Positions 1 through 45,145 of a stretch of DNA of 47,495 nucleotides are shown in pieces. The DNA comes from an uncultured Clostridia bacterium. GTDB lineage: Bacteria > Bacillota > Clostridia > TANB77 > CAG-508. The notes under the pieces were generated by a model that did no database searches, was not told the origin of the DNA, and saw nothing but the letters and a program-made list of their open reading frames with translations. Each line of letters begins with the position of its first letter. The first letter of the stretch is position 1. A program made the translations under genes and the position numbers. The stretch is from positions 1 through 47,495 of the forward strand of contig CALXJR010000002.1 of NCBI GenBank assembly GCA_944388675.1. The letters run 5' to 3'.

Positions 1-3000
1 ATCTATTTGATTTAAGTCTTCTTTTAAGCTATGTTCTACTCCGTTTACTGTTATTCTATCTATTTGTTTTTGTACACTTAAGTTAAATGTTTGTTTTCTA
101 TAATAGTAAATTACTTCTATATCTTCTTCTGTGTATACTCCTGCCTCATTGCTTGGTCTTAATTCTTCTACAAAGTTATAGAATGGTATGTCTTTTTGTT
201 CTGTAGTATATGGCTGTCCACATAGACCACTCATTTGCTCTCTGTAGCTTGTGTATTCTTCACCATCTTCTGTTTGTACTTTGCGTAATATTTCTTCGTT
301 TGTGTCTACATCTACATATTTTACTGTTACAATTCCACTTGGCTTTCTTTCGTAATAGTATGTTACATATATGTCTTCTTTTGTCATTGTTCCTGTGCTA
401 TTCTCTGGCTCTGGGTCTGCTGGCCTATAGTTTTCTATTTCTTTTCTTTCTGCATTATAGCTGTCTCCACTAAAGCCTTCTATTGTTTCTTCCTCTGCTA
501 ATACTACATTGTCCGTATTGTCGTCTGGTGTATTGTCTTTTTCTAAGTATTGTACTATTACTTTTGCTGGAATCTTCTTGTAAACATATGTTACTTCTAT
601 TACTCCTTCTGTTAGTTCACCCTCTGTTTGTCCTTCAACTCTTACAAATTCGTAATTTGGTATGTCTTTTTGCTCTGTCTTGTATTGTTCTTGTACTTTA
701 CCTGAAATTGTTACATCATCTACAAGTTTGTTGCCTTCTTCATCTACATAATGTACAATTACTCCTCCTGCGTTTGTTCTTTCATAATAGTAGATTACTT
801 CTATTGTACCTTCTATCATGTTTCCTGTTGTATTATTTGTACTTTCTACATATGTATAGCCATATATATCTTTTTTCTCTGTTCTATATAGATCTCCTGC
901 TAAGCCTTCTAATTCATAACCTTCTGATATTTCTTTATCTGTATCTTTATCCACATATTTTACAATTACATTTCCTTGTATTTCTATTTTTGTTTCATAT
1001 GTAGTTTCAACAGTGTTTGTTGTTTCATTTTCATATAAGTCTATTCTTCCGTTTACTTTATTTACCATTGCTTTTGCTGTAATATCAAGGTTTTTGAATA
1101 CTACTGAAATATTCTTTTCTATTGAAACTTTGTAATCTCCGCTTTGGTATGTATTAATGTGGTCTATTTCTTCTGTCCAAGTTATTGTATTTGTTAAGCT
1201 ATCATATGTTCCACCATCTAGCTCAGATTTTTCAACATCTATTGCATATGGTAAATAGTCTGTTAGTGTTATTTCTGCTCCACCTAAGTAGTCTTCAACT
1301 GTTGCATTGTATTTAATGTTGTAATTTACTTCTTGAGTTGAGCTTGTTATTAAGTCTGTACCTGTCTTTTCTATGTTAGAGTCTAAGTTTGTATCCATTA
1401 ACTTATAACTATTTGTCACTCTTACTGTTACTAATGTATCTGTATTAAATACTTGAATATCAGGTTCATCGTAGTATTCTAAATCGTTTGTATTAGTTTC
1501 TGTCTCTAACACACTGTAGTTTATTTGATTTCCTTGCTCTGTATATTTTGGTAAGTCTTGGAATGTATGTGTCCAGTTATTTTCAGTATTTAATACTACT
1601 TTATATTCATTTTCAGTAGTTTCTGCTGTTGTAGCATTTTCCGAGTTATTATTTATGTTGTTTGTACTTATAATATCTTCAATATTTTCTACAACTTTTC
1701 CATCTGCTGTTAATTGTACTGTTACACTATCTGGTCTTCTACCCTTGATGTCTTCATTATCATCCCAAACTTTTTCTACTGTGATGTCTTTTACAAATTC
1801 TGTTTCTGTTTCCTTGCTAGCTTCAGGTGTTTCTTGTTCTTGTTTTGTTTCTTCTAAGATAATCTTTCCTTTTGCTCTATTTGTAAAGCTTTCACTTGTG
1901 CAGTTCATTTGCGTAAATACTACTTCTATGTTCTTTGTTATACTTATATCTTTTGCTTCATCTGTGTAGGTATTTACTCTTCCTAAATCTTCTACCCAAG
2001 TTATTGTGTTATTTGCTGGATTATATAATCCGCCATTTAATTCTGATATTGCTTCATCTATTGCATAAGGTAAGTAGTCAACTATTTCTACTTTTGCATT
2101 TCCTACATAGTTTTCAACTCTTCCTGTGTAGCTAATTGTATAACTTACTTTATCGTCTTTATTTATGATTTTGTCTGTACCTTCTTTTGTAATTGTATTT
2201 TCTGTTATATCTCCTGGTTGTAATCTGTAGTAGTAAATTACTTCTATTGGTGTTCTAGTCATTATTCCTGTAGTGTTTCCGGTATTTGAAACTACTTTGT
2301 AGTTTTCTTGTACATTGCTTGATGCACTTGTTGTGTAATCTTGGCCTACAAATCCTTCCTTAGTTTCATCTTCTACCACTTCTCCATATACTTTTGATGG
2401 TACTTTTTGTGTTGTTCCTTCTATGTAGTGATGTACTATTATGTATGTTGGAATTTGTACTTTTGTTTCAAATGTTGCTTCTTTTGTATCTTCTAGAACT
2501 ACTTTATCTTCTCCTGGTTTTTCTGGATCTTTTTGTATTAATTCTAGTTTGCCTTCTACTCTATTTGGTATTGTTCCTTCTAGAGTTTCTGCATCTTCTC
2601 CATATACATATTTTACTGTTATGTTCTTTTCTATATTTACTGTTTTGCCTCCGTTTGTATATGTATCTATTGAACCTAAGTCTTCTTCCCATGTTATTGT
2701 CTTTGCATTAGAGTCATAGAATCCGCCATCTAAATATTGTTTTTCTACATCTATTTCATATGGTAAGTAATCTACTAAGGTAACTTTTCCTTCTCCTACA
2801 AAGTCTTTTATTGTTGCATTATATGTTATTTGATATGTTATAGAGTCTTCTGTAGAATTTATTATTTCTGTTCCTGTTTTTTCTATTGTGCTTTCTTCTT
2901 TTATTTCTGGTTTTTCATATGGAGTTTCTGTTTCGTTTGTATCTTCTCCATCTATGCTAGCTATGTTTGTGATATTCTTACTGTCTACTACATCGTAATT

Positions 3001-6000
3001 TACAGTTACCTCAAAGCTTACTTCCGCCGATTCTCCAACAGCTATGCTATCTATTGTCCATGTTATTTCGTTTTTGTCATTTACTGCTCCTCCAATAGAT
3101 GTCTTACTTAATGTTGTTCCTTCTGGTACTACATCTTTTACTGTTACATTTGTTACAGGTTCTTCTCCTAAGTTGTTTACTCTTATTGTGTATTTAATCT
3201 TATCTCCTGCTGTAACTGTTCCTTCTGGAAGTTCTTCTTCTGTTTGTCTAATTACTTCTGATGTTTTTTCGTAATTTATTACTGGTACTTTTGTCTCATT
3301 TGTTTCTTCTTCATCTACTGTTGCTGTGTTCTTAATTTCTGTTGCTCCTTCAAGTACTGTTACTGTAAAGCTTATTGTTTGTTCTGTGTCTCCCACATCT
3401 ACTGTTATTCCACTTTCTAATTGTTCTTTTGTTACATTAGACTCTGTTCCATTTAGAAGTACACTACCTTCTACAAACTCTGTTCCTTCTGGAATACTAT
3501 CTGCTACTGTAATTGTCTTACTTAAGTCTCCTGTGTTTCTAATTCTTATTGTGTATGTTATTTTCTCACCTGGTATTACATAACTTAAGTCTTTTTCTGT
3601 TTTCATCTCTTTGTTTGCTTCTATTACTGCTTCTACATACTCATGTGTTACTTCATTTGTTGGTACATCATTTACTGTTGCAATATTTGTTATTGTATCT
3701 CCATTTTCTAAGTCTTGTACTTTAACTCTAAACTCTACTGTTTTAGCATCTCCTGCTCCTATTTCTATATTTATTCCCGTTGTTGTTAAGTCTTCTAATG
3801 TATAGCTTTCATCGCTACCTTCTACTTTTATACTTCCATCTACAAAGTTTGTTCCTTCTGGTATACTATCTTTTACTGTAACATCTACTGGCAATGTTCC
3901 TTTGATATTTTCTAATACTATTACATATCTTATTTCATCACCTTGTGTTACTTTTTCTCCATTTGCTGGCTCTGATGTTTTTCCTATTCTTAAGTCTGTT
4001 TTATTCACTGTTTCTGTTACTTCATTTGTTTCTTTGCCATCAACTGTTGCAGTATTTTTTATTGCTTTCATAAATAAGTCTTCTTCTAACTCATCTACTG
4101 TAACTTGGAAGCTTACTTCTGCTATTCCTTTTGCTGCTACATTTACTGTTATTCCTGTGTTTAAGTCTTCCTCTGTGTATTCGTTTGGAACGTCTAAGCT
4201 ATTTTCTGTTATTTTTATGCTATTCTCAACAAATGTTGTTCCTTCTGGCACCTCGTCTTGAACTACTACTTCTTTTCCAACTTCTCCAGAGTTTTCTACT
4301 GTTACTTTATAAGTAATTGTTTCTCCTTCTACAACATGGTCTTGATTATTCTCTGTTTCTGCAGATTTTGTAGCTGTAATTATTGGTCCATTATATGTGT
4401 TTGTAATTGTTGTTCCTTCTATGTCTTTTTGATAGTATGCTAAGTCTCCTTCATTTACCTCTACTTCATCTACTGTGTAATTTATTTCTTTTCCTTGTGA
4501 ATCATATTTTTGTAAGTTTGTAAATATGTAACTCCATGTATTTATATCTTCACCTACTTTGTTTGCTTCTGTTAATACCGCTTCTTGTACTACATTTTCT
4601 CCATTCTTTAATTGAACTTTTACTTGTGTTGGTATTGTATAAATATTATTTGTATGGTTCCATACCTTTGTTACTGTTACATCTTTTCTAAAGTCTGTGG
4701 TTGTTGTTACTGTGTCTTCTACTGGACCTTCTTCTTGCTCTGTTGCATCTAGCTCTATTTGTCCTTGTACTTTATTATCAAAGCTTGTCTGGCTATAATC
4801 CATATCTTTATATACTACTGTTATTTGTTTTGTTATTGTTATTTTTCCTGTTTCTGCATTTGTATATGTGTCTATGTTTTCTATGTCTTGTGTCCATGTT
4901 ATTGTATTTTGAGCCTCGTTATATAGACCGCCATCTAAGTTAGATTTTGCCTCATCTATCTCATATGGTAGTGTGTCTACTATTGTTACTTTTGCATTTC
5001 CTATGTAGTCTGTTACTTTTCCTGTGTAAGTTATACTATATGTTACAGCTTCATTTTCTTGTGTTATTTTCTCTGGTCCTTGTTTATCTATTTGTTGTTC
5101 TATTTGTGCATCTTTTATTCTATAGTAGTATATTACTTCTATTTGCTCTGGTGTCATTGTACCATTTTTATTTGATGGCTCTGCTACTAGCTCGTAGTTT
5201 GGTGGTATGTCTGTTGCATATTCTGTTTCATATGTTTGTCCTACTTTACCATTTATTAATACGTCTTGAATTACATCTCCATTAATAGATGGCACTCTTT
5301 CATCTGTTCCTTCTATGTAATGGTGTACTATTACACTTGTATCCATTGCTTCGTTTGTTAATGTAACTAAAGCTTGCTCATTTGCAATTAAATCTGTTGG
5401 TATTTCGTTAAATGTAAACATACTTGCATTATACATGTCTAATACTGCATAACCGGATTCTGTTTCTTGCATTTGGATATCATCAGGATTACTGTTCGTA
5501 ATATCTAAATCAAATTTCACTATTCCTTCTACTAATCCTTCTGTATTATATTTTATTAATCCTACAGATAATGGTACTTCTGCACCTAAATCTGCTGTCA
5601 ATGTTATTTCTTCTCCACTTGCTGTATCTTCTGGTGCAACTGTTATTTCTCCCATGTATGCCATAATACCAATATAGCCACTACTTACTTCTTTGATACG
5701 TGCTATTGATGACATTCCAGTTATGTCTTTTGCCCATTCTATTTTTCCTTCTTGATTATATTTAATTAAAGCTCCACCTTGTACTTGTATTTCTTCTCCA
5801 CTTACTGTTTCAGTACTATCAAATACTATTGGTTCTTCTAAATAAGCTGATACTATTATTCCTCCATCTTTAGTTATTGCTAAACTCGTAGTTTGATAGT
5901 CTATATTTGGTTCTTTTATTTCAACAGCACTACTTACTTTACCTTCTTCATTGTAAATTAACATTACTGCACTAGAACTCGATATATTTAATATTGTTTC

Positions 6001-9000
6001 TTCTCCTGACTCTGTATTTTCCGAAGGTATAGTCACTGTTTGGTCTGCTGGTACATATTGGAATACGAAATCATCACATATATAGCCTATATTTACCAAA
6101 GTATTTACTTGTAAGTAATTTACATTTTGCATCCATTTTACTTTTCCTTCTTTATTAAAGGTAATCATGTACATACTTTCTGAATCTGTTCCATTAATTG
6201 TGATTGATTGGTTATTCTCTGTTTCTTCTGCTGGAATTGTTAGTTCACCAGCATATATACCTAATGCCGTTATATCTCCATTTTTACTTATCATAGTATA
6301 TGCTAATATATTAGCACTATTCTCTTGAGATTTTACTTGATTTACTTTTACTATTTTTCCTTCTTTGTTAATTGTAAGAATTACTCCATCCATCATAGAT
6401 GTTTTTTCTAAATAAATATCCTCTCCTGATACTGTATTTTCAGCGGGAATTGTTACATTATCTTTAAGTCCTCCTGAAACCACTAAATTTTCTTCAGCAT
6501 CTAATGATATTATCTCTGATAATAATTGTATTTTATCCGAATCCATCCATGATAAGTCCAAATTAGCAAGTGAAATATCTTCTCCTTTTTCAATAGCATG
6601 TCCTGTATATCCTTCTGAAGTTATTTCAATTATTGTTTTTCTATCTTCTTCATTTTCTGCTAGTTTATAACCTTCTGGTGCTTTTACTTCTGTTAAGATA
6701 TATTTTCCTGGTTCTAAGTTTTCTGCTATTTGTCCATTTTCATCTGTAGTGGCAACTCTTAAATCTTGTCCGTCTATGTTCTCTATTTGCCCAACTGGGT
6801 TACCATTGCCATCTGTTACTTCGTTGCCTTGTTCGTCTGTTATTGTGAATTTAGCGTTTGGTAATAATTCACCAAATTCTCCTTGTTTTATTACTTTTAG
6901 AGTTGGGTCATTACCTATTGTGCATGTTATTTGTTTTTCTTCTCCTACAACTTCTGCAAAGTTTCCTTCTAGCATTTCTAAATTATAGATTCCATCTTGG
7001 TAATGTGCAACAAATTTATAAATATTACTATTTGATACATAACCTTTTGGTGTAGATATTTCTTGTAATGTGTATTCTATTTCATCTTCTAGTCCTTGTA
7101 ACCTTATAGTTCCATCTTCTGCTGTTACATAATTTTCTACTCTTTCTTCACCATATTGTGTTGTATATGTTAATTGGAACTCAGTTTCTGCTATTGGTTC
7201 TTTTGTCTCTATATCTATTTTGTTTAATGTTAAATCAAAGTAATTTATTTTTTCATCTACTATTGTTACTACATTGTCTTTATCTAATTCTACAACTGTT
7301 TCTATAGGTTCATTTAATAATTTATAACCATCTGGTGCTTTTGTTTCTGTTATAACAACATTTCCAATTGGGAAGTCTAAATTTATTTCACCATTTTGAT
7401 TAGTTATCATATTACCTCTACTACCGTTTTCTTTATTTTCTATTACGAATGTTGCACCTGCTAATGGTTCTCCATTTGCATTTTGTTTTATTATTTTTAG
7501 ATTTGCTTGTTTTAGTCTATATTCATAAGTTATTACTATTTCTTCTGTTCCAAATGTTCCTGTTGCATTTGAAGGTATTTCTACTAGTTCATATTTTTCA
7601 TCTAATTTTTCTAGTGTTATAGCTTTAGTAGAATATTCTTCTCCTTCTTTTCCTATTCTTGTTTCATCCTGAGCTAAACTTCCATCTTTTAATGGTACTG
7701 GATTTGTTGTTCCTTCTATATAATGATGTACTATTAATGGATAATCTTTTGCTTCATAATAGTATATTACTTCTTGGTCATTATCTACATCTCCATCAAA
7801 TGTTCCATTTGCTTCTTCTGGTATTACATAGTTTTCTTCTTCATCTTTTTCTAGTTCATATTTTTCTAAGTCCATATGAGGAATTGTTCTATATTCTTCT
7901 CCTTCTTTTCCAAGTAATATTTCATCTTCTGCAACTGGAGTAGTTGTATATGTTCCATCTTCTTTTAAATAATGATGTACTATTACTTTTTGTAATTCTT
8001 TATTTTGTATTGTTATTTCATGTTCTCCATCTGATGTAAATTCAAGTGTTATTGGTTCTTCAATTGTTTCATAGCCATATGGTACTTCTATTTCTGTTAT
8101 TTCGTATGTTCCAAATGGTAGTTGTACAACTGCTTTTCCTTCTTCATCTGTTGTAACTATTGTTTCATATAAGTTGCTTGCATCTTCACCTTCTGTTTGT
8201 GTTAGCCTAAATTTTGCTCCTTCTAGTGGTTCTCCTGTATGTTCATCTACTTTGCTTATAACTAATTTATGGTCTTTTTGCATATATGTTACTTCTACAT
8301 GTATGTTTTCTGTAACATTTGTAAACTGTGGCATTGTAAATGTTCCATCTGTATTTTCTTCAAATGGATAATCTCCTCCATTTACTGTAATTTTTACTAT
8401 TTCATAGTCTGGTTCTGGTGTCATTACTATTTCTTTTGTGCTATTATCTCCATATTTTACTTCTTCATAAGGATTTAAATCTTCTCCTGAAATACTTCCC
8501 CCTTTTACTCCATCTATTTCATTTACATCTGTGGTTATTTTTAATATATTTTTTTGGTTTTCCACTGTTAATTCTTGAACTTCTGGAACTCCAGTCATAT
8601 TAACAATCTTTAAAATCATTCCATTTTCGTAGCCATTATTGTTTAAAGTATGCCCATCTGTTTCTATTGTTCCACTATTAAAGTATCCCCCTGCTATTAC
8701 AATACCATCATTTTTTTCACTAACTGATTCTATAATTTCAGAATTATTTCCTCCTATAGATTTTGCCCATTCTACTTTTCCTTTGTCATTATACTTTACT
8801 ATTATTCCATCACTTATTGTTATTTTTTCATCAAACTTTACATTAGTTACTGTATAATTATCTACTGTAATACTTTTACTAGTAAAACTTCCTCCAATTA
8901 AATAACCTCCATCATTAGTTTCTATTACCGTGTTAATTATATCATCTTTTTTTCCTCCAATGCTTCTTACCCATTCCAAATTTTCATTTCTATCATATTT

Positions 9001-12000
9001 TACTATCATTCCTTCTGAAAAACCATACATCGAATTAAAATTATTGTTTACTAAATTATAATTTCCTACTTTAATGCTTTGACTAGTAAAATATCCACCT
9101 ATTATAAATCCTCCATCGTTTGTTCCTTTTATTGAATTTATTACTTCATCTCTACTTCCTCTTATACTTGTTGTCCATTCTACTTTGCCATCTTTGTTGT
9201 ATTTGATTACCATTCCATCTCTGTAACCCGTACTGTTAGTATTTGTTAAGGTATAGTCTCCTACTGTGATACTAGAACTATAAAAATATCCTCCTACTAT
9301 GTATCCTCCATCTTGCATTTCTGCTACTGAATTTATATAATCACCACTACTTCCACCTATGCTTGTTGCCCACTCGACTTCTCCTTCTCTACTATATTTT
9401 ATTACCATTCCATCATAAGAACCTGCATTTGTTAGGGTATAGTCTCCTACTATGATACTTGAACTTCTAAAGTATCCTCCTACTACATAATCTCCATCTC
9501 TGGTCTCTGCTACTGAAGTTATTTCTTCAATATTATTACCTCCTATGCTTGTTGCCCATTCTACTTCTCCATTATGATTATATTTTATTACCATTACATC
9601 GCCAATACCAGCATTTGTTAAGTCATAGTCTCCTACTGTGATATTGCTTGTAAAAGTTCCTCCTACTATGTAGCCTCCATCTCTTGTTGCTGCTACTGAT
9701 TTTATTTCGACAATACCTCCACTTCCTATGCTTGTTGCCCTTTCTACTTCTCCATTGTTATCATATTTTATTACCAATCCACTAGAATCACCTGTATTTG
9801 TTAAGGTATAGTCTCCCATTGTGATACTTGAACTCGAGAAATATCCTCCTGCTATATAGCCTCCATCACTTGTTGCTGTGACTGTTGTTATTTGGTCAGA
9901 ATTTTCTCCTCCTACTGAGGTTGCTTGTATTGTGGTAGGGTCATTTAAATCTACTTGCTCATATTTTATTACCATTCCCTCATAATTACCATTACTTTTT
10001 AGCTCTATTCTATCTAATTTAATATCTCCCTTAAAACGTCCTCCTACTATGTAATCTCCATCATGCGTTTCTGCAACTGAATATATATTGTCAGCATCAC
10101 TTCCTCCTATTACTTTTGCCCATTCTGCTGTTCCATCTACTCCATATTTAATTACCATTCCGTCATAATCTCCATTACTTCTTAGTTCTATTCCATCTAC
10201 TGTGATATTTTTAGAGAAATATCCTCCTACTATGAAGCCTCCATCTTGCGTTTCTGTTACTGAATTAATCATATCATAACGAATTCCACCTATTGTGTTT
10301 ACCCACTTAACTTCTCCTTTTGCTCCATACTTTATTATTATCCCATCATAATAACCATTATTTTTTAGTTCTATTCCATCTACTGTGATACTTCTTTGAA
10401 AAAATCCTCCTACTATGTAGTCTCCATCTTCTGTTTGTGCTACTGAATTAATATAATCATAATCACTTCCACCTACTGCATTTGCCCATTCTGCTGTTCC
10501 ATCTACTCCATATTTAATTACCATTCCGTCATAATCTCCATTACTTCTTAGTTCTATTCCATCTACTGTAATATTGCTACTCCTAAAACGTCCTCCTACT
10601 AGAATTCCTCCATCACTTGTTGCTGATACTGAATTTATTTGTTCATCATCATTTCCTCCTATGCTTCTTGCCCACTCTACTTCTCCGTCTCTACTATATT
10701 TTATTACCATTCCATCACAAGTATAAGAACTACCTGCATTTGTTAGAATGTAGCTTTCATCTAATTCTATTTTGTCACTTCCGAAATATCCTCCTACTAC
10801 GATTTCTCCCTCTTCTGTTACTGCTACTGAACTTACTTCATCTGAACTACTTCCTCCTATACTTTTTGCCCATTCTACTTCTCCTTCTGCTCCGTATTTT
10901 ATCACCATTCCATCATGAGAACTACTGCTAGCATTTGTTAAAGTATAGTTACCTACCTTAATACTACTTGATCCGAAATACCCTCCTGCTATATAGCCTC
11001 CATCACTAGTTGCTGCAACTGTTGTTATTTCGTCATAATCACTTCCACCTATAGACATTGCTTGTGTTGGTACATGTCCTGTTGGTTGTGGTCTTGATGC
11101 TCCTATTCCGAAGTAATATGTTTGGTTTGATAAATCATATTGTTCTGGTGCTTGTACTTCTACTGCTTTGTATAGTCCTTCTGGTAAGTCTACTGTTAGT
11201 TCTCCATTTTCATCTGTTTGTACTGTATAATATTCTCTTCCATTTATTGTTTCTTTTGTTCCTACTATTTCTTCTTTACTGTTTCTTGCTGGCTGTTCTG
11301 TTCCATCGTCCACGTTAAATATAGCAAATTTTATGTTTGCTAATGTTGCTTTAGTTTCTGCATCTTTTTTTATTAGTTTAAATGATGGGCTGTCTTCTAT
11401 TGTTAATGTTACTGTGTTTCCATCCACTGTGTAGTTTCTTTCTTCATTGTTTTCGTCTATTAATATTAGTTGGTCAGTTTCTTCGTCTTTTTGTACTCTA
11501 AAGCTTATGTCTTGTACTTTTGCATAACCTTCTGGTGCCATTACTTCTTTTAAGGTATAGGTTTGGTCTATATTTTTTTCTGATTCATATTGGTATAAGC
11601 CTTCTATTGTAACATATCCTTGTTCGTCTGTTGTATATTTTCCTAATTCTTCGCTTCCTTTATATAATTTAAATGTGGCATTTGCTAAAGGCACTACTTC
11701 TGTATCTGCTAAGCTTGTTTCTGCTTGTGCTATTAGTTCGTCCTCACTAACAGTACTTTCTGTTGTTTTTTGTATTTTGAATAATTGTAAGTTATATGTT
11801 GGTATTTTTTCATCTTCTAATGTAAAGTTTACTACTGGTATATCGTTTTCTTCTGTTACATTTTGTTCTAGCACTGTTCCTTCTGTTACTTGTAATTCAT
11901 AGCTTCCATTGTTATTTACTATTTTAAATTTTATTGGGCTTGCTAAATAGTACCCATCAGCTTTTACTTCTTCCAATGTGTATTCTTGATTTACAGATAA

Positions 12001-15000
12001 TCCATTAAGGATTGCTTCTCCATTTGTGTTTGTTCTTATTGTTCTTCCTGTTTCTGGTAAGCCATATCCTGTAATTTTATATTTAACTCCATAAAGCAAT
12101 ATATCAGTTCCTTGTTCTTTCTTTACTAGTTTTAAACTTGCTTTTATTTCGTCTTCTACTTGTATGCTTACTTTATAATTTTCTCCATCTTCTTTTATTA
12201 CTTGTGGGTCCTCTCTTGTTTCTCCAGTTTTTTCTATTGTAAGTATTCCTTGTTCATCTACATGACCAATAAACCTTATAACGTTGCTGTTTAATTCGTA
12301 GTTATCAGGTGTTTTTATTTCTCTTAATTCATATGTTCTTTCTGCATAAAGATTCCTTATTGTTAGTTTTCCTTCTGAGTTTGTAACTCCTGTTTTTGCA
12401 TCTTCATAGCTTTCTGTTCCATCATCCTTTGTAATTACTTCTTGTATGCTATATGTTGCTCCTGGAACTAATTTATCTTTTCCTGTTTGGAATTTACTTA
12501 GTTCTAGATTATATTTTTCTGCTATTCTAAGTCCTATTTTATTTGGCTCTGTTTGAGTTCTATATTTTCCATCTTCTGTGTCTAGTGCAAAATATACTCC
12601 ATGGTGACTAAATGATACTTGGTTAAATTCTAATCCATTTGGTATTTTTACTGTGTAATAGAATACATATTCTTGTCCTGTAGGCATTACATAGTCGCCT
12701 AAGTCTATTAAGAATGTTTTTATTTCATCCCAATTTGTTACTTCTTCTGATGTTTGCCATCCATTTTCACCATTGCTTAAATCTCTATCTGGATTTTCGT
12801 TTGTAGAATAGTAAATTGTAGCTGTGTCTAATAAGTCTTGTGGAATTTCTATACCCGTATCTACCATCTTTGTTGTGAATGTTGAACCTAGGCTACTACC
12901 ACTTAATACATATGTATTTCCTTCAAACGGGATTTTACCTAATATTTCTATCTCACTTATTGTACTTGCATAGTTATTTTTTATCTGTACTCCTATTTTT
13001 ACTGTTTGTTCTTCCTGCTCTTGGTCTACTACTGCATAAACTGGTTTTATATCTGCCACTTGTGGTGATACTACTACACTTCCTTTATCATCATAATCTG
13101 ACGCTGTTTGGTTTGTTAAAAGTGAGTTTGGTGATACCATACTGATACTCGTTGTTCTATAATTTACTAATTCTTCTGTGTTTAAGTTATTATTTACATC
13201 AAATCTATCTTGTGCTGTATAGTAATAGTCATTACCATTTTCATTTGATGCATACAATTCTATATTTCTAGATGTTGTTGCAATTCTTGGATCTGGTGTT
13301 AAGTCAACATCTATTTTTATATCATATGTCTGTTCTTTATCATTTTTTGTAACTATTTTTATGAATTTTTGTCCATCTTCTTCTATTAGTTCGTAGCTTT
13401 CTAGACTTACATTTGAATTATTTATTTCTACACTATTTAGCTCTGCTGTTAACATTTCATCTGGTAGTTTTACTAAAAATGAACCATTTACCCAACCTAC
13501 TTGGTTTGAGCTTGTATTTGCAGATGCTCTTATTGTAATAATATCATTTTCTTCTGTTGCTTGTGTTGATATTGTATTATTGCTTATGCTAATAGTTGCA
13601 ATAGAGAATGGTGCTTCATAATGTGCTTGATGAGTATCTGTCTCCACGTATTGTCCACCAACATATCCTTCTAAATTAGATTTTATATAATCTAATTCAT
13701 TAAACTCTGCTCTTTCATATTTTTCTAAAATCTTTTCATCATCTAATTCTTTTACATTATATACATAGAAATATGCATCATTTTCTACTATATTACTTGT
13801 TTCTACTCTTATGTGTTTTACAGATGTTTCATATCTGTATGGATTAGAACTTGTGTATCTGTTCCAATCACTTGAAGTAAATGTTACTAAAAGATTATCT
13901 GTTTCTTCATCATATACATTTATGTAACCATCTGTGCCTAACATTCTGTCTGCTCCAGAGAAGTATATTCCAACATTAGTTGTTACATCTTCCATACTTT
14001 CTTGTGAAGCATCTGATTTTATAAATTGGTCTACTACTTGCTCGCTATCGTTTTGTGTTTCCTTCATTACAATGCTTCCTAAGTTACTATTTGTTCCTAT
14101 ATATGCTTGCCATTTAACTATATATGTGTCATCTCTTTCTTCTTCACTTTGACCATTGTATAGTCTTAAAGGTTTTTGTTTTGATACAATATATCTATAT
14201 GTTGGGCTTGATACATAATTTCCAACCGTTATGTCAAATCTTGACTGTGTTCCTTGGTATTTTTGGAAGTTTGCTACTATCGTTGCTTTTGCTGTGTTAG
14301 ATAGATATGGGTTTGTAAATTCGTCGTTTGTGTTGTTATAACCTTCATAATATGTGCTTGCTGGTATTCTTAGTTGAACTGAATCTGTTCCTAAGCTAGT
14401 ATATGCTTCTAGTGGGTATGTTACTCTTACACTATAACTGTTAGATGTTGATAGTTTGTTTGTTACTGTTCCATCTTCTGCTAGAGTTGAAGTTCTTTCT
14501 AGTGTTAATATTTTTGTTTCTTCATTATAATTTGTTGTTGCGTTACTTCCTGTATATACTACTTCTAATGGTGCATAACCATTTAGCTCTAGTATTTCTA
14601 CTTCTGTGTGATTCTTTCCTAATAATAGTTCTTGTCTTGTTTCGTTTGTATTTACTGTAAATGTTAGATTAATTTTTCCGTTCTCTTCATCTATTAAATC
14701 CTCTATATATTTGCTTTGATATGTATTGCTTATGCTAGCACTAGTTCTTCCATGCCAATCCACAGTAAAATCTACTGTTTTACTTATTTCAATATTTTGT
14801 TCTTGTCCTTCTTCATCTGTATATACATATGTTCCTGTTAGTGTTACACTGTTTACTTTGCTGTAATTATTTATATTACTTCCTATTGCATTTGCTTTTC
14901 CTGAAGAGTATGTATAATCTCCACTTCTTACTATTCCTGTTATTAACTTTTGTGTACCATTGTTTATTTGGTTTAAGCCTATTTCTTTTATATTGTTTCC

Positions 15001-15450
15001 TATGTAATTATCAGCTAATTCTTCATCCTTTGGTAGGTTTGTTTGTAAATAGAAGTTATCACTGTTTATGGTTATTTTGCCATCTTTTAAATAACCTTCT
15101 GTAAGGACATTTAATTCCATATACAAGGTTGCTTCTTCTCCTATTTCATTACATGTTCCTCTTATGCTTTCTGCATAGCCATCTCCGTCAAGATCTCTTA
15201 AGAAAAAGGCATCAAACTTAACATTGTTTGTTTCTTCTAAGTCTTCGTCTCCGTCTTGTACTTGCTCATATTCCATGCTTCTTGCAATTTCTGGGCTTAA
15301 GCTTGCTAAATTGTTATTTCTATTTAGCATGAACACGGCTAGTATTGTAGCTAATGCAACTATTGCAGTTGTTCCTATTGCTATTACTTTTTTATTTAGC
15401 TTTTTTCCTTTCTTGTTTTTTAGTTGTGTGTTTTGATTTTTCTCTTTCAT
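1..15450 (-). CDS. Giant (>5,150 aa) cell-surface adhesin-like multidomain protein. The N-terminal part is in the window and the C-terminus lies beyond the left edge. Absent from the supplied ORF track.
   Basis: ATG at 15450-15448 with GGAGG (15458-15462) 7 nt upstream. 15450 = 3 x 5150 and the frame reaches position 1 without a stop. The track lists no minus-strand ORF at all in 1-15450, which is what an ORF with no in-window stop looks like. All + ORFs there are Leu/Phe-rich antisense artefacts. Hand translation of the N-terminus gives [42 protein letters not shown] (basic stretch plus hydrophobic helix). More than 12 sampled segments give coherent modules, e.g. [27 protein letters not shown] (Cna-B-like), [15 protein letters not shown]...IEVIYYY (MucBP-like) and [30 protein letters not shown] (DUF11-like). 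Confidence 0.9.
   Translation of the reverse strand, partial: [5150 protein letters not shown]
100..1000 (-). repeat. Four tandem MucBP-like domains at the window-proximal end of the giant CDS
   Basis: Translated: [15 protein letters not shown]...[24 protein letters not shown]...[24 protein letters not shown]...[25 protein letters not shown]...IEVIYYYRK. Confidence 0.7.
3000..4400 (-). repeat. Four tandem DUF11-like ('conserved repeat domain') modules of ~125 aa inside the giant CDS
   Basis: Period is ~370-390 nt. Each unit carries the signature G(D/E)xIxYTIxxxNxGxxxxxxVxVxDxIPEGTxFVxGS. Example: [38 protein letters not shown] (about 3110-3230), and the verified frame at 3600-3481. Confidence 0.7.
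5400..6600 (-). repeat. Second, divergent array of ~6 repeats of ~65 aa (beta-propeller-like) inside the giant CDS
   Basis: Translated units of the type ..TIPAExTxSGExIxLxxxxxxGxxIxYNxEGKxxW.., e.g. [36 protein letters not shown] (verified in frame at 5829-5761). Confidence 0.55.
6600..8290 (-). repeat. Mixed block of ~4 Cna-B-like and 2 MucBP-like (IVHHY..EG..) domains inside the giant CDS
   Basis: Translated segments: [22 protein letters not shown]...[48 protein letters not shown]...[24 protein letters not shown]...[38 protein letters not shown]. Boundaries are approximate. Confidence 0.65.
8610..11060 (-). repeat. Array of 13 tandem ~60-66 aa beta-propeller-like repeats (coding) inside the giant CDS
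   Basis: The + strand motif cctcctactatgta.cctccatc recurs every ~180-200 nt (near 10983, 10790, 10590, 10405, 10228, 10040, 9845, 9660, 9478, 9290, 9100, 8910, 8690). Translated unit: [61 protein letters not shown]. Confidence 0.8.
11100..12530 (-). repeat. About 4 tandem Cna-B/SpaA-type (prealbumin-like) domains inside the giant CDS
   Basis: Hand translation gives [22 protein letters not shown]...[30 protein letters not shown] and similar units (..[31 protein letters not shown]; ..[27 protein letters not shown]). This is the classic xTDxxGxxxxxxLxxGxYxxxExxAPxGY signature. Boundaries are approximate. Confidence 0.7.
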
Positions 15451-15891
15451 GTGTTTACCTCCAAAATTTATTTTGAATTAGCTTTATCTATGTTATCGCT
15501 ATATTTTAGCGTTATTACAAAAATTCAGACAATTTCCTACTTATATATAATAAATAATATATTCTTATAATTTTATTGTAAATATAGCTATTTCTAAGTA
15601 TTTAAACTTTGCTTGCGGAACCTCATTTTTAGACTTTTTTTAAATTTTTATTACATTTTTGTTACTTTTTTAGATCTTTTTTGCTACTTTACTAGGGAAT
15701 ACTAGTGTTTATAGTTTTTATTTATTTATGTATACCGTTTATTTCTATTATACTTACATTGATTTTTAGAGTAAATATAAAATGGGTTGGTAATTTTTAG
15801 TAAGCTTGTAAACTAAATAGTAATGCTACTTTGTAGTTTTTGGTAATTTCTGTTTATACTTTTTTTAATTGGTTTTTAGGCATAAAAATGC

Positions 15892-15924
15892 AAAAAAATA
15901 CACGCTAATTGTTTTATTAGCATG
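15892..15924 (-). terminator. Rho-independent terminator downstream of the AbiE operon
   Basis: On the minus strand, catgctaat-aaaaca-attagcgtg forms a 9-bp stem with one G-U pair. It is followed by tattttttt (T7). Confidence 0.55.
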
Positions 15925-16060
15925 TATTTATTTTTATTATTGTAAACCTTGTTTTTTTATGTTTACTGATATTCAACATTACATTAAGCCATACACTCGT
16001 TTATTCATCTAATTTGTAGGTTTTGTAACAATTACTTTAAATTTCAAATGAATATATTTT

Positions 16061-17020
16061 TTATTTGTTATTTAACTTCCATAGTATCATTGGATGTACT
16101 TTTACCCTTTCTATTATTTCTTTATCATTAAATATTATTTCTGGTTCAAAAATTCCATTTTGAAACTTATTATAAAATTCATTTACATTGCTGTCTATTA
16201 CCAATATATCCTTTAAATATTTTCCTACATCTTTTTTCATTTCATCAAGATTAATTTTTCTAGGATTCATATCTCTTAATGTTGGTAAAAGCTTTGTTAC
16301 TATGTCTTGTCTTTTTATTTTTTCGATATTTTCAATCTTCATTTGTTCAAGTTTATATCCACAAATAGCTATGTATTCTAACATAAAACATTGCTTTAAT
16401 AATTGTTTTTCTTCTTTATCAAATAAATCATATTTACTTAGTGTATATACGTCAAACAAATCTCTTGCAGTTGTTCTATCTAATAAAGCACATATTTTAG
16501 TTGCATATATTTCTATCGGATTTAAACAATGGATTATGAATTGATTATTAATAAATACATCTGTATTTACTTTCATTTTTTTCGTTTTAAGAATATGTAC
16601 TCTATCCATAAAGTTTATTTCAATTTTTATATTGTCTATATTACCTTTTATATCAATATATTCTGCAATAATAGAATCTAACGCATGGACATTTTTGGAT
16701 TTTTCCAAATTAATTCTGTAATTATTCGCAATTAAATACCTAACTAGTACATTATGTATTTTTTCTCGTTCTTTTAGCATTTGTTCCTTTTTTATATTTT
16801 GTGTAAAATCTAAATCAATATCAACCGATAGTCTTGGAAAATTAAATACTGCTGTATTTATAGCTGTTCCACCTTTCAGTGCTAATAAATCTTTTAAGTC
16901 TGGTCTGCTATTGATCCATTCTAGAACATTTAATAATCTATATACTTTTTCCAAAGTTGACCTTATAAAACCCGTTTCTTTTGCTAATTTTATTATATAT
17001 TCCTTATAATTTTCTACCAA
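16061..17020 (-). CDS. abiEii: AbiEii/AbiGii-family nucleotidyltransferase toxin (type IV TA, DUF1814)
   Basis: 319 aa. Motif LKGGTAINTAVFNFPRLSVDIDLDF is typical of the family. It has a TTG start with AGAGGAAGG upstream and overlaps the upstream partner gene by 7 nt. Confidence 0.75.
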   Translation of the reverse strand: MVENYKEYIIKLAKETGFIRSTLEKVYRLLNVLEWINSRPDLKDLLALKGGTAINTAVFNFPRLSVDIDLDFTQNIKKEQMLKEREKIHNVLVRYLIANNYRINLEKSKNVHALDSIIAEYIDIKGNIDNIKIEINFMDRVHILKTKKMKVNTDVFINNQFIIHCLNPIEIYATKICALLDRTTARDLFDVYTLSKYDLFDKEEKQLLKQCFMLEYIAICGYKLEQMKIENIEKIKRQDIVTKLLPTLRDMNPRKINLDEMKKDVGKYLKDILVIDSNVNEFYNKFQNGIFEPEIIFNDKEIIERVKVHPMILWKLNNK

Positions 17021-17766
17021 AACAAAGTCCTTCCTCTCATTAAATAAATCTCTGGAACAATTAAATTCCAGTTAGATATAAATTTATTTTTTATTCTTTT
17101 TGTTTCATCATCAAAATAATAATGAGTATTACACAAATTTTCATGACATTCTTGTATCGTCTCTTCTTCTATTCCTAACTTATCCTTAAATAATTCAAGT
17201 ACAAAACCTGCTTTAGCATACAATTTTTTTGAATTGTAATACTTTAAATATTCTTTTATTTTTTTATTGTCTAAACTACCAATAAGTTCTAAACACATTA
17301 TTAATTCTTCATTTCCTCCTGCCAAATCTGTTCTATTTATATTATCTAATACAGTTCTTTCTTTATCAGTTATACGGACTTTTCCTTCTTGTACTATTCC
17401 AAAATCATATTTATTTTTTATAAATTCATATGAATATCCATCAAACTCAAAATTTTCAAATTTCTTTCGACTTGAAATATAAACTACATAAAATACTTGA
17501 TTTTTCACTCCATAATAGTCAAATGCAGAATGATATGATACAAAAGAATCGTTTTGTATTTTAGAGCCAATCATATATTGATCTGGTATAACAAGTCCAT
17601 ACTCCAAATCACATACAGCATATAAATTATATTTTATTCTTTTTATATATTCTTCTTTCAACATTCTTTGTATTAAACTTTTTGATGAGTTTTCATTATG
17701 TGTTATATTATTTACATCTTGCATATTGAACACTTTTAACTTTAATAATTCCTTATAGTTTTTCAT
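17014..17766 (-). CDS. abiEi: AbiEi-family antitoxin / transcriptional regulator (type IV TA)
   Basis: 250 aa. It sits immediately upstream of, and overlaps, the AbiEii-like gene. Size and position fit AbiEi. The family call rests mainly on synteny plus general sequence resemblance. Confidence 0.6.
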   Translation of the reverse strand: MKNYKELLKLKVFNMQDVNNITHNENSSKSLIQRMLKEEYIKRIKYNLYAVCDLEYGLVIPDQYMIGSKIQNDSFVSYHSAFDYYGVKNQVFYVVYISSRKKFENFEFDGYSYEFIKNKYDFGIVQEGKVRITDKERTVLDNINRTDLAGGNEELIMCLELIGSLDNKKIKEYLKYYNSKKLYAKAGFVLELFKDKLGIEEETIQECHENLCNTHYYFDDETKRIKNKFISNWNLIVPEIYLMRGRTLFW

Positions 17767-17841
17767 AATACCCCCATTTTTGTATTTATATAATCATTAT
17801 TAGTGTTTTAAATTACATACTAAATTGTTAATTTTAAATAC

Positions 17842-17870
17842 ATTGTAACATTTTTTTATTTGATTTTCAA
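17842..17870 (-). promoter_or_regulatory. Sigma-A type promoter of the abiEi-abiEii operon
   Basis: Minus strand reads TTGAAA - 17 nt - TACAAT, with TG at the extended -10 position (..aaatgtTACAAT). Confidence 0.55.
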
Positions 17871-18660
17871 GTATTGTTATTTGCTTTAGTATTTTGTTTA
17901 GCTATTATAGTATTTAATATTGCATATTATACATATAATTATCAATACCTATTTAAAATCAATGTAACTTTTAGTCATATGAATACCTTTTTAAAATATA
18001 AATTTACTACGAGAACTTTTTAGTTCTCGTAGTTTTGGAATTCTTAATCTCACCAAATTTTTTCTTAAAATATTTTGTTGCATTATTTTAAATATAATAT
18101 AATATAAGGATTTTTTATGTAAGGCAGTACCCATAAAGTACTGCCTTAATACTAGGTATAGTTTGCTTTTTAAGTAAAATAAAATAGGGGATTTATATTT
18201 TATTTATATTTGTACTCATCAATTCAAAAAAACATTATCACCTCCTAAAACTGGTATAAGAGTTAACATTAATTTTTTTATTTCACTATGGGGGAATAGT
18301 TGAAAAACGTTCTTATGTATACTTTATAAATCTTTCGTAAACTTCAAACTAAATTTTCTTTAGAATTTCTAGATGCAAAATAATCAATTTAAAAGAATAG
18401 AGACTCTTTAAAATTTTTAATATCGATATTAATTCATCTGAATAAATAAGCTTGTACAAGTTTGTAAGTAAATTGTTTTATAAAACTAGAATAATAATAG
18501 CACGTAAATGGCCATTTATCAAGCTTTTTCGTACTTCTTATTTTTACATTTTTCTTTTATTTTTTTGTTTTTTTCTTGGATAAAATATATCATTTTATTA
18601 CATTTTGCATTAATTTGTAAATTTATAAATTTTTATACTTATTACTATTTTTTCAAAGTA

Positions 18661-18689
18661 TTGATAATTAAACTTTTGTAGAGTATAAT
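18661..18689 (+). promoter_or_regulatory. Sigma-A type promoter for the metallophosphoesterase/uridylyltransferase genes
   Basis: TTGATA (18661-18666) - 17 nt - TATAAT (18684-18689). Confidence 0.55.
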
Positions 18690-18817
18690 ATTTAAAGTTA
18701 TTAGATTAAAATGTTGAAAATTACTTTTTAGCAATCCATTTCTGTAAGATTTTGAATCTAACAAAAAATTAAGGAAGGAGAAATGATGTTAGTTTTATCT
18801 AACATCTACTAGGAATC

Positions 18818-19612
18818 ATGGAGCGTATTGCAATAATTTCGGATGTACATGCTAATATTGTAGCACTTGATACAGTTCTAGAAGATATTACCAAAAGAAA
18901 TATATCTAGGATTTTTTGTCTTGGAGATAGTGTTACTAAATGTCCTAATCCAGACCTCGTTATAGACAAGCTTAGAGAAAAGTGTGAAGTTATGTTAAAA
19001 GGAAATTGTGATGATATTATTTGCAAGCCTTCACCTGATGCTCAAAGATTTTGGTCTAGAAGAAAAATTGGCGAAGAAAGAGCAAATTATATATATAATC
19101 TTCCTATAAGTTTTGATTTTTATATGAGTGGAAGATTAATCAGACTATTTCATGCTTCTCCACAGAGTCTTTTTCATATATTTAATCCAATGTTTTCAAA
19201 TGCAGAAAATTCACATGCTGATATAGAAATTAAAGATCCTATGGATTTATTTGAAAATACGGAGTTTATTGGAAAGACAAAGGATTCTCCAATACCAGAT
19301 GTAGTAGGTTATGGTCATATTCACACTCCAAACATTTTTAGATTTAAAAATAAACTTGTATTTAATACTGGGAGTGTTGGAATGCCAGTAGAAATGGAAA
19401 ATACTAAAAATGCTGATAGTACAAGTAAGTTTTCTACTCTTTCTTCATATATTATATTAGAAGGTGAATATGGATCTAAAAATCTATCTTCATTTTCTGT
19501 AACTCTTGTTAGGCTACCATATGACATTCAAAAAGAAATAGACTATTTAAATAAATCTGATATGCCTGGCAAGGAAAATTTGATTTGCAGTTTAAAAACT
19601 GCATGTTCTTAA
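18818..19612 (+). CDS. Calcineurin-like metallophosphoesterase
   Basis: 264 aa. Motifs: IAIISDVHAN, CLGD, GNCD, GHIH. Confidence 0.75.
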   Translation: MERIAIISDVHANIVALDTVLEDITKRNISRIFCLGDSVTKCPNPDLVIDKLREKCEVMLKGNCDDIICKPSPDAQRFWSRRKIGEERANYIYNLPISFDFYMSGRLIRLFHASPQSLFHIFNPMFSNAENSHADIEIKDPMDLFENTEFIGKTKDSPIPDVVGYGHIHTPNIFRFKNKLVFNTGSVGMPVEMENTKNADSTSKFSTLSSYIILEGEYGSKNLSSFSVTLVRLPYDIQKEIDYLNKSDMPGKENLICSLKTACS

Positions 19613-19629
19613 ACAAATGAGGTGTATTT

Positions 19630-20859
19630 ATGGAAGATAATCTGAAGCAGAATTTAATTAAATATAAGCAAGAGCATTTAATTCGCTTTTATAAAGAATT
19701 AGAGCCAAGTGAGAAACATTCTTTAACATACCAAATAAAACATATTGATTTTGATAAAATTATTTCACTTTATGAACATTCTATGATAGATGATTATATT
19801 GATTCTAGTAGAATTTCACCTATTCCTTATATTGATAAATCTAGCTTAACTAAAGATGAATTAAATTATTATACTGATATAGGTAACAATATTATTAAAC
19901 AAAACAAATTAGCTATTATTACACTTGCAGGTGGTCAAGGTACTAGACTTGGATATAAAGGACCTAAAGGGACTTATGAAATTGATGTTCCTCCTAAGAA
20001 ATCTTTGTTTGAATTTGTTTGTGATTATTTAAAAAATGTAAGAGATAAATTTGGTGTAGAACTTTATTGGTACATAATGACTAGTCCATCTAATGACACA
20101 GAGACAAAAATTTATTTTGAAAATAAAAACTTTTTTGGATATTCTAAAAATAAAATTAAGTTTTTTATTCAGTCTACTTTGCCAATTATAGATATTAATG
20201 GAAAAATAATTTTAGATAAACCTTACCAAATTAAAGAAGGCTCCAATGGTAATGGTGATGTTTTTAGAGCTTTTGCAGATGCAGGCTTTTTGAATCAATT
20301 AAAGAAAAATAAAATAGATTATATTTTTATTGGTGGAATAGATAACATATTACTTAACCCTACAGACCCTTTATTTTTAGGATTAACAGCAGATAGGAAA
20401 TATAATATTGCAAGTAAAAGTTTAGCAAAAAAGGATTTAACTACAAATGAATGGGTATTTGCAAATATTGATCATAAACCTTCTATCATAGACCCTAAAT
20501 TTTTATCAGATATTTATGCTAAGGATATTAATGGTAAATATTTATATAATCAAAAAAATATGCTTGCTCACTTGTTTTCTACAAATGCCTTTGAAAAACT
20601 TATATCAGTCCATTTACCATATCACAGGGCTTTTAAAAGAAATGATTTTATTAATGAAGAAGGAGTAAAAGTCGTTTCTACAAAACCAAATTCTTTTAAA
20701 TTTGAAAAGTTTATATTTGACTCTTTTAAATTTTTTGATAAAATTTTATTATTACAGGTTAAACCAGAAGAAGAATTTGCACCAATTAAATCTTTTACAG
20801 GAAGTCAAACTCCTGAAACTGCATTAAAATTATATTTAGATTATAAAAATAGATTATAA
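19630..20859 (+). CDS. UDPGP-family (eukaryotic-type UDP-sugar/UDP-GlcNAc pyrophosphorylase-like) uridylyltransferase
   Basis: 409 aa. Motif LAGGQGTRLGYKGPKG and overall layout match the UDPGP type 1 family (compare the 'probable uridylyltransferase' of staphylococci). Confidence 0.7.
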   Translation: MEDNLKQNLIKYKQEHLIRFYKELEPSEKHSLTYQIKHIDFDKIISLYEHSMIDDYIDSSRISPIPYIDKSSLTKDELNYYTDIGNNIIKQNKLAIITLAGGQGTRLGYKGPKGTYEIDVPPKKSLFEFVCDYLKNVRDKFGVELYWYIMTSPSNDTETKIYFENKNFFGYSKNKIKFFIQSTLPIIDINGKIILDKPYQIKEGSNGNGDVFRAFADAGFLNQLKKNKIDYIFIGGIDNILLNPTDPLFLGLTADRKYNIASKSLAKKDLTTNEWVFANIDHKPSIIDPKFLSDIYAKDINGKYLYNQKNMLAHLFSTNAFEKLISVHLPYHRAFKRNDFINEEGVKVVSTKPNSFKFEKFIFDSFKFFDKILLLQVKPEEEFAPIKSFTGSQTPETALKLYLDYKNRL

Positions 20860-20900
20860 TTTTATAAAAAAGTTTGTAACATTTTTATAATTTTTGAATA

Positions 20901-20936
20901 ATATATAATACTAACTTTAGTATTATATATTTTTTG
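20901..20936 (+). terminator. Rho-independent terminator (A/T-only stem)
   Basis: atatataatact (20901-20912) / agtattatatat (20919-20930) form a perfect 12-bp stem. It is followed by tttttt. Confidence 0.5.
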
Positions 20937-21037
20937 TATAATAAATATTTTTCTAGAATATATTTTAATGAGTATAATTTTAGGTTTATAGATTAATCCT
21001 TAAGTAAAAATCTAAATTTATTAAAAGGAAAATTTAT

Positions 21038-21190
21038 ATGAGTAATATTAATTTTAATGATTTAATGAAAATGTTATCACAAATGGATAAAAAAGAGCTT
21101 GAAGAAAATATGGCTAAAGCTACTAAGATTTTAAATTCTAAAGACCCTAATGCATTTTTTAAACAAATGAACAACAATAAACAAGATTAA
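21038..21190 (+). CDS. Small hypothetical protein (50 aa), below the ORF-track cut-off
   Basis: ATG at 21038 preceded by aaaagga. Translation: MSNINFNDLMKMLSQMDKKELEENMAKATKILNSKDPNAFFKQMNNNKQD. It lies directly upstream of, and on the same strand as, two further small genes. Confidence 0.45.
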   Translation: MSNINFNDLMKMLSQMDKKELEENMAKATKILNSKDPNAFFKQMNNNKQD

Positions 21191-21214
21191 CTTTTATTTT
21201 AGGTGGTGAATTAA

Positions 21215-31196: not shown

Positions 31197-31262
31197 TTTC
31201 TATTAAGAATTTTTATTAATAATATTTAATTTCTATTAAGAATTTTTATTAATAATATTTAA
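31197..31262. repeat. Perfect 33-bp tandem duplication
   Basis: tttctattaagaatttttattaataatatttaa occurs twice, back to back (31197-31229 and 31230-31262). Confidence 0.9.
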
Positions 31263-31776: not shown

Positions 31777-31787
31777 CACTATACCTC

Positions 31788-43966: not shown

Positions 43967-43969
43967 CTC

Positions 43970-45052: not shown

Positions 45053-45083
45053 ATAATCACTCTCTTTATTTTTTACTATCAAA

Positions 45084-45112: not shown

Positions 45113-45121
45113 TAGTTTTGT

Positions 45122-45133: not shown

Positions 45134-45145
45134 TTTTTTATTTCT

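Follow-up and report, generated by a model that had tools for sequence, protein, structure and literature searches.

A giant surface adhesin gene, truncated at a contig edge, and its unannotated head family in uncultured Clostridia

At the left end of contig CALXJR010000002.1 (GenBank assembly GCA_944388675.1), from an uncultured Clostridia bacterium of the CAG-508 lineage, the minus strand from position 15450 to position 1 is a real gene for a giant surface adhesin, the 3′ end of which is missing. The stretch analysed, referred to here as the window, is one complete 47,495-bp contig, and the gene is therefore cut by the contig edge, as a first-pass annotation made from the sequence by eye had assumed. 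We are highly confident that the product is a fibrillar cell-surface adhesin of low-GC uncultured Clostridia, about 5,300–5,400 residues long; four rival explanations, taken up where the evidence bears on them, jointly claim less than a fifth of our belief.

Translation of the reverse complement of positions 1–15450 gives 5,150 codons with no stop, bearing out the continuous frame that the first-pass annotation had read from an ATG at 15450 preceded by GGAGG; no in-frame stop or frameshift, either of which it had named as grounds for withdrawal, was found computationally. With a stop probability of 0.086 per codon, taken from the base composition of the strand, about 445 stops are expected in 15.4 kb and the probability of 5,150 stop-free codons is about 1e-202. 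The remaining five frames contain 189–759 stops each, their longest open run being 176 codons. An in-frame stop lies nine codons upstream of the ATG, and the GGAGG ends 7 nucleotides (nt) before it (8–12 nt upstream, by direct reading). The encoded part comprises the first 5,150 residues of the protein, with a mass of 572 kDa and an isoelectric point of 4.3. On the plus strand of the same region are six open reading frames (ORFs) of 104–173 residues, rich in Leu, Ser and Phe and rightly dismissed as junk in the earlier reading; judged by sequence, they are antisense artefacts. The giant gene itself does not appear in the ORF list, which omits frames running off the sequence end. This ‘absence’ is a listing convention and not a biological oddity, and standard gene callers find such genes: the expectation that pipelines would miss it was overstated, as public gene calls include partial calls at contig edges and an ortholog called as 5,409 residues. 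The ortholog lies on scaffold_194 of ENA ERZ16268115 (58,252 bp; referred to here as L004), a contig from a different strain of the same species, which is 97.4% identical to the window in nucleotide sequence over 17.6 kb.

The domain map along the protein was drawn from Pfam and NCBIfam scans, self-comparison and in-house hidden Markov models (HMMs), with structures predicted by AlphaFold2 (AF2); residue numbers are given in parentheses.

15458..15462, minus strand: ribosome-binding site GGAGG
15450, minus strand: start codon ATG
15301..15450, minus strand: export signal or signal anchor, a Lys-rich n-region followed by a hydrophobic helix (1–50; from sequence)
12526..15300, minus strand: non-repetitive head, predicted by AF2 as a chain of β-sandwich domains (51–975)
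11104..12525, minus strand: four SpaA-type domains of CnaB-like fold (981–1449; Pfam PF17802, four stretches, E 2e-35)
8482..11103, minus strand: first array of 62-residue blades, 13 clear and one degenerate (~1450–2323; self-similarity, HMM)
8269..8481, minus strand: module of ~70 residues without a family, conserved in relatives (2324–2394)
6634..8268, minus strand: SpaA, two MucBP and three SpaA domains (2395–2939; Pfam SpaA 5.7e-61, MucBP 3.5e-9)
5323..6633, minus strand: second, degenerate blade array (~2940–3376; blade HMM, BLAST)
4396..5322, minus strand: MucBP, DxLPY module 1 and Cna_B (3377–3685; Pfam MucBP and Cna_B, motif at 3492)
2932..4344, minus strand: four DUF11/CLIPPER domains (3703–4173; Pfam PF01345 1e-28, TIGR01451 1.6e-34)
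964..2919, minus strand: DxLPY 2, MucBP, DxLPY 3, Cna_B and DxLPY 4 (4178–4829; HMM, motif)
97..960, minus strand: four MucBP domains (4831–5118; Pfam PF06458 5.9e-44, six stretches in the last 1,850 residues)
1..96, minus strand: first 32 residues of a terminal DUF11-like domain, from which fragments of relatives continue (5119–5150)

The map drawn by hand agrees with this one almost everywhere, its repeat coordinates falling within a few codons, and a reader with nothing but the sequence can accordingly map the domains of a 15-kb gene accurately. The adhesin modules that it named are recovered above Pfam gathering scores, as eight SpaA, eight or nine MucBP, four DUF11 and two Cna_B domains. 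One assignment was revised: the ‘Ig-like module’ placed at 8600–8290 is partly a fourteenth, degenerate blade, and its remaining ~70 residues (2324–2394) have no Pfam match at E ≤ 10. At the N terminus a predicted secretion signal is present, its cleavage site being only putative; AF2 places a helix at residues 20–49, about 23 residues of the stretch are hydrophobic, and residues 1–50 are 100% identical in L004.

The SpaA domains at residues 981–1449 match pilin and adhesin structures in the PDB and have conserved Lys and Glu positions; the four DUF11/CLIPPER domains overlap DUF7927 matches and have conserved Lys, Asp and Asn positions; the terminal MucBP tetrad is also matched by an NCBIfam InlJ-like model. 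The eight SpaA-type domains, the profiles of which match SpaA, SpaC and BcpA pilin structures, could suggest, as the Pfam name does, a subunit of a sortase-polymerised pilus. We give this next to no probability: the pilin motif [WYF]PK[NH] occurs nowhere in the 5,150 residues, neither a pilin-specific sortase nor a partner pilin lies next to the gene, and a mass above 570 kDa with a multi-family architecture fits a single-chain fibrillar adhesin instead. Within the second SpaA domain is the sole LPETG pentapeptide of the protein (12046–12060, minus strand; residues 1131–1135), most likely a coincidence, far from any C terminus.

The head (residues 51–975) is non-repetitive, as described earlier from the letters, and is without any family assignment. 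The whole head has no match in Pfam or NCBIfam, five sub-pieces searched against Pfam at E ≤ 10 returned only noise, and neither phmmer nor a 50-sequence profile found a match among PDB sequences. An AF2 model built from a 50-sequence alignment (predicted local distance difference test (pLDDT) score of 86) shows an all-β chain of sandwich domains. Residue 86 marks a DLDGDG motif resembling a Ca-binding site, and a thioester domain was considered and rejected, as there is no TQxA-type motif and C100 is the only Cys in the head. With Foldseek, the model matches generic multi-Ig proteins of the PDB at template-modelling (TM) scores of ~0.2, namely integrin α legs, α-2-macroglobulins, the C123 region of AgI/II and a DUF11 protein, with no catalytic fold among the matches. 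These results bear on whether the protein is adhesive at all. A giant surface protein could instead be an envelope spacer or an S-layer-like coat, or harbour an unrecognised enzyme or toxin in its head. In favour of such roles are the 925-residue head without a family or solved-structure match by sequence, the degradative functions proposed for giant bacterial proteins (bioRxiv 10.1101/2023.11.21.568195), and the fact that propellers of the type found in the shaft can be enzymes, as in CylK. We nevertheless regard a non-adhesive role as quite improbable, because AF2 models the head with confidence as a series of β-sandwiches, with no catalytic fold among the Foldseek matches, and because all recognised modules are known stalk or binding domains of adhesins (PMC12617251).

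The head defines a large family. An exhaustive HMMER search recovers at least 814 protein clusters (50% identity) at E ≤ 1e-3, of which 407 remain at E ≤ 1e-30. In full-length family proteins the head is always N-terminal, spanning residues ~40–1000, and is carried by chains of ~600–6,541 residues, mostly 1,000–6,000, some of which are truncated as called. The family has few named members, hypothetical proteins of ‘Clostridia bacterium’ metagenome-assembled genomes. The combination and scale that had been called unusual are thus less so than claimed, and the size and composition of the gene are typical of its own family. Full-length relatives keep the same order of modules from head to tail. 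As neither the head nor the DxLPY unit is covered by a Pfam or NCBIfam model, the gene marks a large family that has gone unannotated. Alternative shaft modules, absent from the window, are swapped among P0385 (6,541 residues), P0254, P0262, P0269 and P0291. P0385 lacks blades; in their place is a region with about five copies of a Gly/Asn-rich ‘NCYN...GGI’ repeat, ahead of which stand ‘YGDYNGDG’ motifs. Paired modules of ~150 residues with the pattern ‘ANSY...DYGYAT...YYLHLGY’ occur in several other members, and these too are absent from the window.

Recurring in the C-terminal third is a module of ~125 residues, referred to here by its motif DxLPY. A motif search finds it exactly four times, the number first reported, at residues 3492, 4227, 4458 and 4731 (nt ~4977, 2772, 2079 and 1260). 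Isolated modules match no Pfam or NCBIfam family and give no PF01345 match at E ≤ 1. The AF2 model of copy 4, from 12 sequences, is a β-sandwich with a pLDDT of 91, and its Foldseek matches (E ~1e-4) include AggA, the CLIPPER/DUF11 structure 9ifr (rank 2, TMt 0.57), Cnm N2, Cna (PDB 1amx) and BcpA. Invariant in all 12 sequences are K14, D50 (the D of DxLPY) and N116, located on the predicted first, middle and late strands, a placement that resembles the isopeptide triad Lys715/Asp748/Asn806 of CLIPPER (PMC12617251). Because this Lys/Asp/Asn set is invariant and the predicted fold is CnaA/CLIPPER-like, an isopeptide domain is suggested, and the conserved residues indicate that the module probably carries such a bond. 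On the model, we read DxLPY as a divergent CnaA/CLIPPER-like stalk unit beyond the reach of the family libraries, and as a candidate new isopeptide-domain family. Its fold is not new. Two other assignments were set aside. Identity with DUF11 by profile is not significant (hhalign against the DUF11 copies of the window, E 0.056), and an iterated HMM that merged the two was circular and was not counted. An Ig-like domain of InlJ type was demoted, as the sequence match is weak (E 0.017–0.2; PDB 3bz5, E 0.023) and the 50 best structural matches do not include InlJ.

Inserted between the stalk domains are two arrays of blade-like repeats. The first comprises 13 clear units of 62 residues, the number counted by hand, and one degenerate unit (residues 1437–2323 by self-similarity and HMM), and Tandem Repeats Finder reports periods of 183 and 186 nt. 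The earlier description of these units as propeller-like holds: the blade profile matches the C-terminal propeller of CylK at E 6e-14, that domain being a seven-bladed β-propeller (PMC8916777), and the NCBIfam model NF047494 (SBBP-repeat lipoprotein) matches at E 4e-14 and 52 bits, far under its 400-bit equivalog cut-off. Pfam gives sub-threshold propeller hints only. The second array, also noted by hand, is present and weaker: it has no Pfam match, the blade HMM matches residues 3001–3347, where four or five blades are detected with room for about seven, and BLAST aligns it to the first array at 29–39% identity. In full-length relatives the first array contains 13–15 units, most often 14. The first array probably folds as two seven-bladed propellers, and unit counts of 14 and about five to seven are compatible with 7 + 7 and 7, or about three propellers in all.

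The blades are also where strains differ. Compared between the window and L004, identity falls from 98.8% in the head to 91% in the SpaA block and ~53% in the blade array, where L004 has one unit more; the last figure may partly reflect misalignment or assembly of the repeats. The L004 contig was read as far as 8.4 kb into the giant gene. The difference lies between window positions 8811–10144 and L004 positions 17596–19112, where L004 is longer by 183 nt (one blade) and the middle blades have diverged strongly. It reflects either rapid turnover of repeats or short-read misassembly. An assembly artefact affecting the whole gene, through chimerism or repeat collapse or expansion, or else a decaying pseudogene, would draw on this poorly aligning array and its additional blade, on the tandem repeats (183/186 nt) and the large number of paralogous modules, on the end of the contig inside MucBP repeats, and on frameshifts that split relatives in long-read assemblies inside the blade array. 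We consider it very unlikely. A frame of 15.4 kb has no stop; two independent assemblies, L004 and L005, follow the window colinearly at 97–98% identity through the head and SpaA block and into the blade array; the module order is shared by full-length relatives from head to tail; and the internal repeats, only 40–70% identical at the protein level, are too diverged for easy collapse.

The frameshifted relatives are more distant. On L002/L003 (positions 1–24548; 67% head identity) the head gene is split into 1,515, 73 and 8,249 residues, and on L001 (positions 10001–21321; 63% head identity) into 1,600, 309 and 1,681 residues, in each case by two frameshifts inside the blade array, which may be indel errors of long-read assemblies rather than biology. 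A second giant gene, encoding 7,299 or 8,048 residues, lies 2.5 kb upstream on L002/L003.

How much of the adhesin is missing can be estimated from its relatives. The ortholog on L004 starts at ~15,861 and has a projected end near 32,090 of the record, well inside the 58,252-bp contig, and is taken as complete for that reason. Four fragments of relatives with 77–87% identity (P0121, P0124, P0125 and P0127) overlap the last residues of the window’s protein (...LKEDLNQID) and extend it by ~153 residues. From the 5,409-residue ortholog and these extensions, the full protein would measure about 5,300–5,400 residues, with about 150–260 residues, or 3–5%, missing. The real protein is thus even larger, as had been foreseen, only by this small margin. 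Searched with the last 400 residues for the gene’s own 3′ end, GTDB genomes and JGI metagenomes gave only relatives of 33–38% identity. For the leftward extension that had been proposed, the view comes from the 77–87% identical relatives, which end in a DUF11-like domain, the motif SVKTGG, a transmembrane helix and a basic tail.

In these relatives the last MucBP domain is followed by a DUF11 domain that barely passes the cut-off (25.7 bits), then by SVKTGG, a hydrophobic helix of ~22 residues and a K/R-rich end, a tail conserved in at least 15 close fragments. Distant full-length relatives carry SVETGE, TVATGL, NVSTGS, SIKTGD, VIRTGE, NPKTGD or AVGTGE at this position, so that the pattern [S/T/A/N][V/I/P]xTG, membrane helix and K/R end is found in at least 15 close and nine full-length relatives. 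The layout looks like that of a sortase sorting signal, and SVKTGG is a candidate non-canonical one; by sequence, anchoring could proceed either through a sortase or as a plain membrane helix.

These elements suggest how the adhesin would work. The Lys-rich, hydrophobic N terminus would direct Sec export, and the SVKTGG motif, membrane helix and basic tail seen in relatives would retain the protein in the envelope, linked by a sortase to peptidoglycan or anchored in the membrane. About 30 β-sandwich stalk domains (SpaA, Cna_B, DUF11/CLIPPER, DxLPY and MucBP), many of them probably locked by intramolecular Lys–Asn/Asp isopeptide bonds at the conserved residues, would build a fibre of ~100–200 nm presenting the conserved 925-residue head away from the cell. 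As the head is near-invariant between strains while the propeller array varies, it stands out as the candidate ligand-binding tip and as the part to study structurally or in binding assays. Along the shaft, the roughly three propellers and nine MucBP domains would offer further binding sites, probably directed at glycans or mucus; the MucBP domains are present, and their binding is taken from the family name only. Recombination between repeats would let the blade array vary between strains in unit number and sequence with the head nearly constant.

Several observations weigh against this account of a head-tipped, wall-attached fibre. The head has no lectin or other binding fold recognisable by sequence searches or Foldseek. 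The anchor of the giant gene is predicted from relatives of 77–87% identity, the motif in their tail is devoid of the Pro of LPXTG and (S/P)PXTG, the tail reaches 13.2 bits with Gram_pos_anchor (PF00746), where 20 are required, and the sorting-signal models of NCBIfam do not match it. Its nearest precedent, the NVQTG motif of Clostridioides difficile CbpA, was not cleaved by SrtB in vitro (PMC4155245), and there is no sortase gene within the 47-kb contig. Short-read assembly of a 183–186-nt repeat could also distort the blade number.

The closest known counterparts are the fibrillar adhesins with isopeptide stalks, for which the CLIPPER Lys/Asp/Asn bond and the use of such domains as stalks provide the precedent (PMC12617251). 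Shared with them are an export signal, a distal non-repetitive region, tandem SpaA, Cna_B and DUF11/CLIPPER domains, conserved Lys/Glu or Lys/Asp/Asn positions and the overlap with DUF7927, and a C-terminal anchor region is predicted from relatives. Unlike them, the giant protein has a head that matches none of the catalogued adhesive domains, about three SBBP-type propellers in its shaft, a tail motif without proline and four DxLPY units that fall under every Pfam threshold. A second comparison is with Listeria InlJ, which is composed of leucine-rich repeats (LRRs), an Ig-like region, four MucBP domains and LPXTG. The C-terminal third of the giant protein similarly runs from a β-sandwich module through four MucBP domains to the predicted anchor; the NCBIfam InlJ model matches the MucBP region at 85 bits, far short of its 1,700-bit cut-off, and the summed matches of Pfam InlJ_IG on the DxLPY core ‘LDGG.Y....TITW’ are weak. 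The giant protein is, however, six times longer, and no LRR family was found in any Pfam or NCBIfam scan of it. The tripartite tail of the relatives, in which an xVxTG motif precedes a helix and a basic end, recalls C. difficile CbpA and clostridial SrtB candidates ((S/P)PXTG, NVQTG), from which it differs in its motif (SVKTGG; family [S/T/A/N][V/I/P]xTG) and in having no sortase near the gene. By analogy, Staphylococcus aureus Ebh and the giant surface proteins of Lactobacillus kunkeei, of 3,000–9,000 residues (PMC4494060), also appear as multi-thousand-residue, acidic, repeat-built and envelope-anchored proteins of a small Firmicute genome; their repeat families appear entirely different, the giant protein having no FIVAR or GA modules.

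The adhesin is thus an already familiar kind of protein, and the current understanding of how such adhesins work is unchanged; its interest comes from a head family without annotation, a candidate new CLIPPER-like domain and a sorting-like tail motif that lacks proline. It is doubtful, although conceivable, that the head, the roughly three propellers and the proline-less xVxTG tail together define a distinct, uncharacterised class of giant adhesins, with a ligand of its own and a separate anchoring enzyme or specificity. If so, small-genome uncultured Clostridia would depend on this class to attach themselves to a host surface or partner cells. Relatives’ contigs reach ~1.7 Mb, and some carry at least two such genes of 7,000–10,000 residues side by side.

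Directly upstream of the giant gene is a toxin–antitoxin locus, separated from it by a 610-bp spacer.

16061–17766, minus strand: AbiEii nucleotidyltransferase toxin (Pfam AbiEii 2.5e-26) with an overlapping upstream partner of 250 residues
15503..15929, minus strand: part of the 610-bp spacer, with a terminator-like hairpin at 15929–15896 after AbiEii
15775–15747, 15582–15554 and 15532–15503, minus strand: three sigma-70-like sites from a consensus scan

The 250-residue partner has no Pfam match; by sequence, the two genes are probably an AbiEi/AbiEii type IV toxin–antitoxin pair. The AbiEi-like gene (17014–17766) was found on 16 public contigs, on which the pairing is conserved. A scan of the leader gives ten promoter-like sites against 6.4 expected, which is weak evidence. 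Surrounding these genes is chromosomal housekeeping: in addition to AbiEi/AbiEii, the contig encodes MinC, PBP2, MreD, MreC and MreB, RadC, MecA, an M23 peptidase, PcrA and RF-1.

The AbiE pair next to the giant gene, a TraG/VirD4-type coupling protein at the other contig end (45191–47347) and Foldseek matches of the head to viral models that include tail-fibre-like Ig strings could together point to cargo of a conjugative element or prophage, the giant protein being a mating adhesin or a receptor-binding protein. This is highly improbable. Core housekeeping genes fill about 28 kb between the giant gene and TraG, at least five independent contigs show the same AbiE junction and flanking MinC–Mre cluster, the viral matches are generic (TM 0.1–0.18), and the GC content of the giant gene is close to that of its neighbours.

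At the far end of the contig, the coupling protein (Pfam 2.5e-84) adjoins an SbcC/SbcD-like pair, an AAA_23 ATPase with a Metallophos nuclease, and an integrative conjugative element may have its edge in this region (41804–47347, minus strand). Scans of the window for tRNA genes and Rfam families gave no matches. Between 30330 and 31500 is a stretch of ~1.2 kb without an ORF, consisting of low-complexity T/A runs (GC content of 17% in the 30–32 kb bin against 27.7% overall), with no Rfam match and without a skew switch. Within it is a 32-nt direct repeat, TTTCTATTAAGAATTTTTATTAATAATATTTAA, at ~31198–31262, and beyond the stretch, at 31534–31976 on the minus strand, are two small ORFs of 62 and 81 residues.

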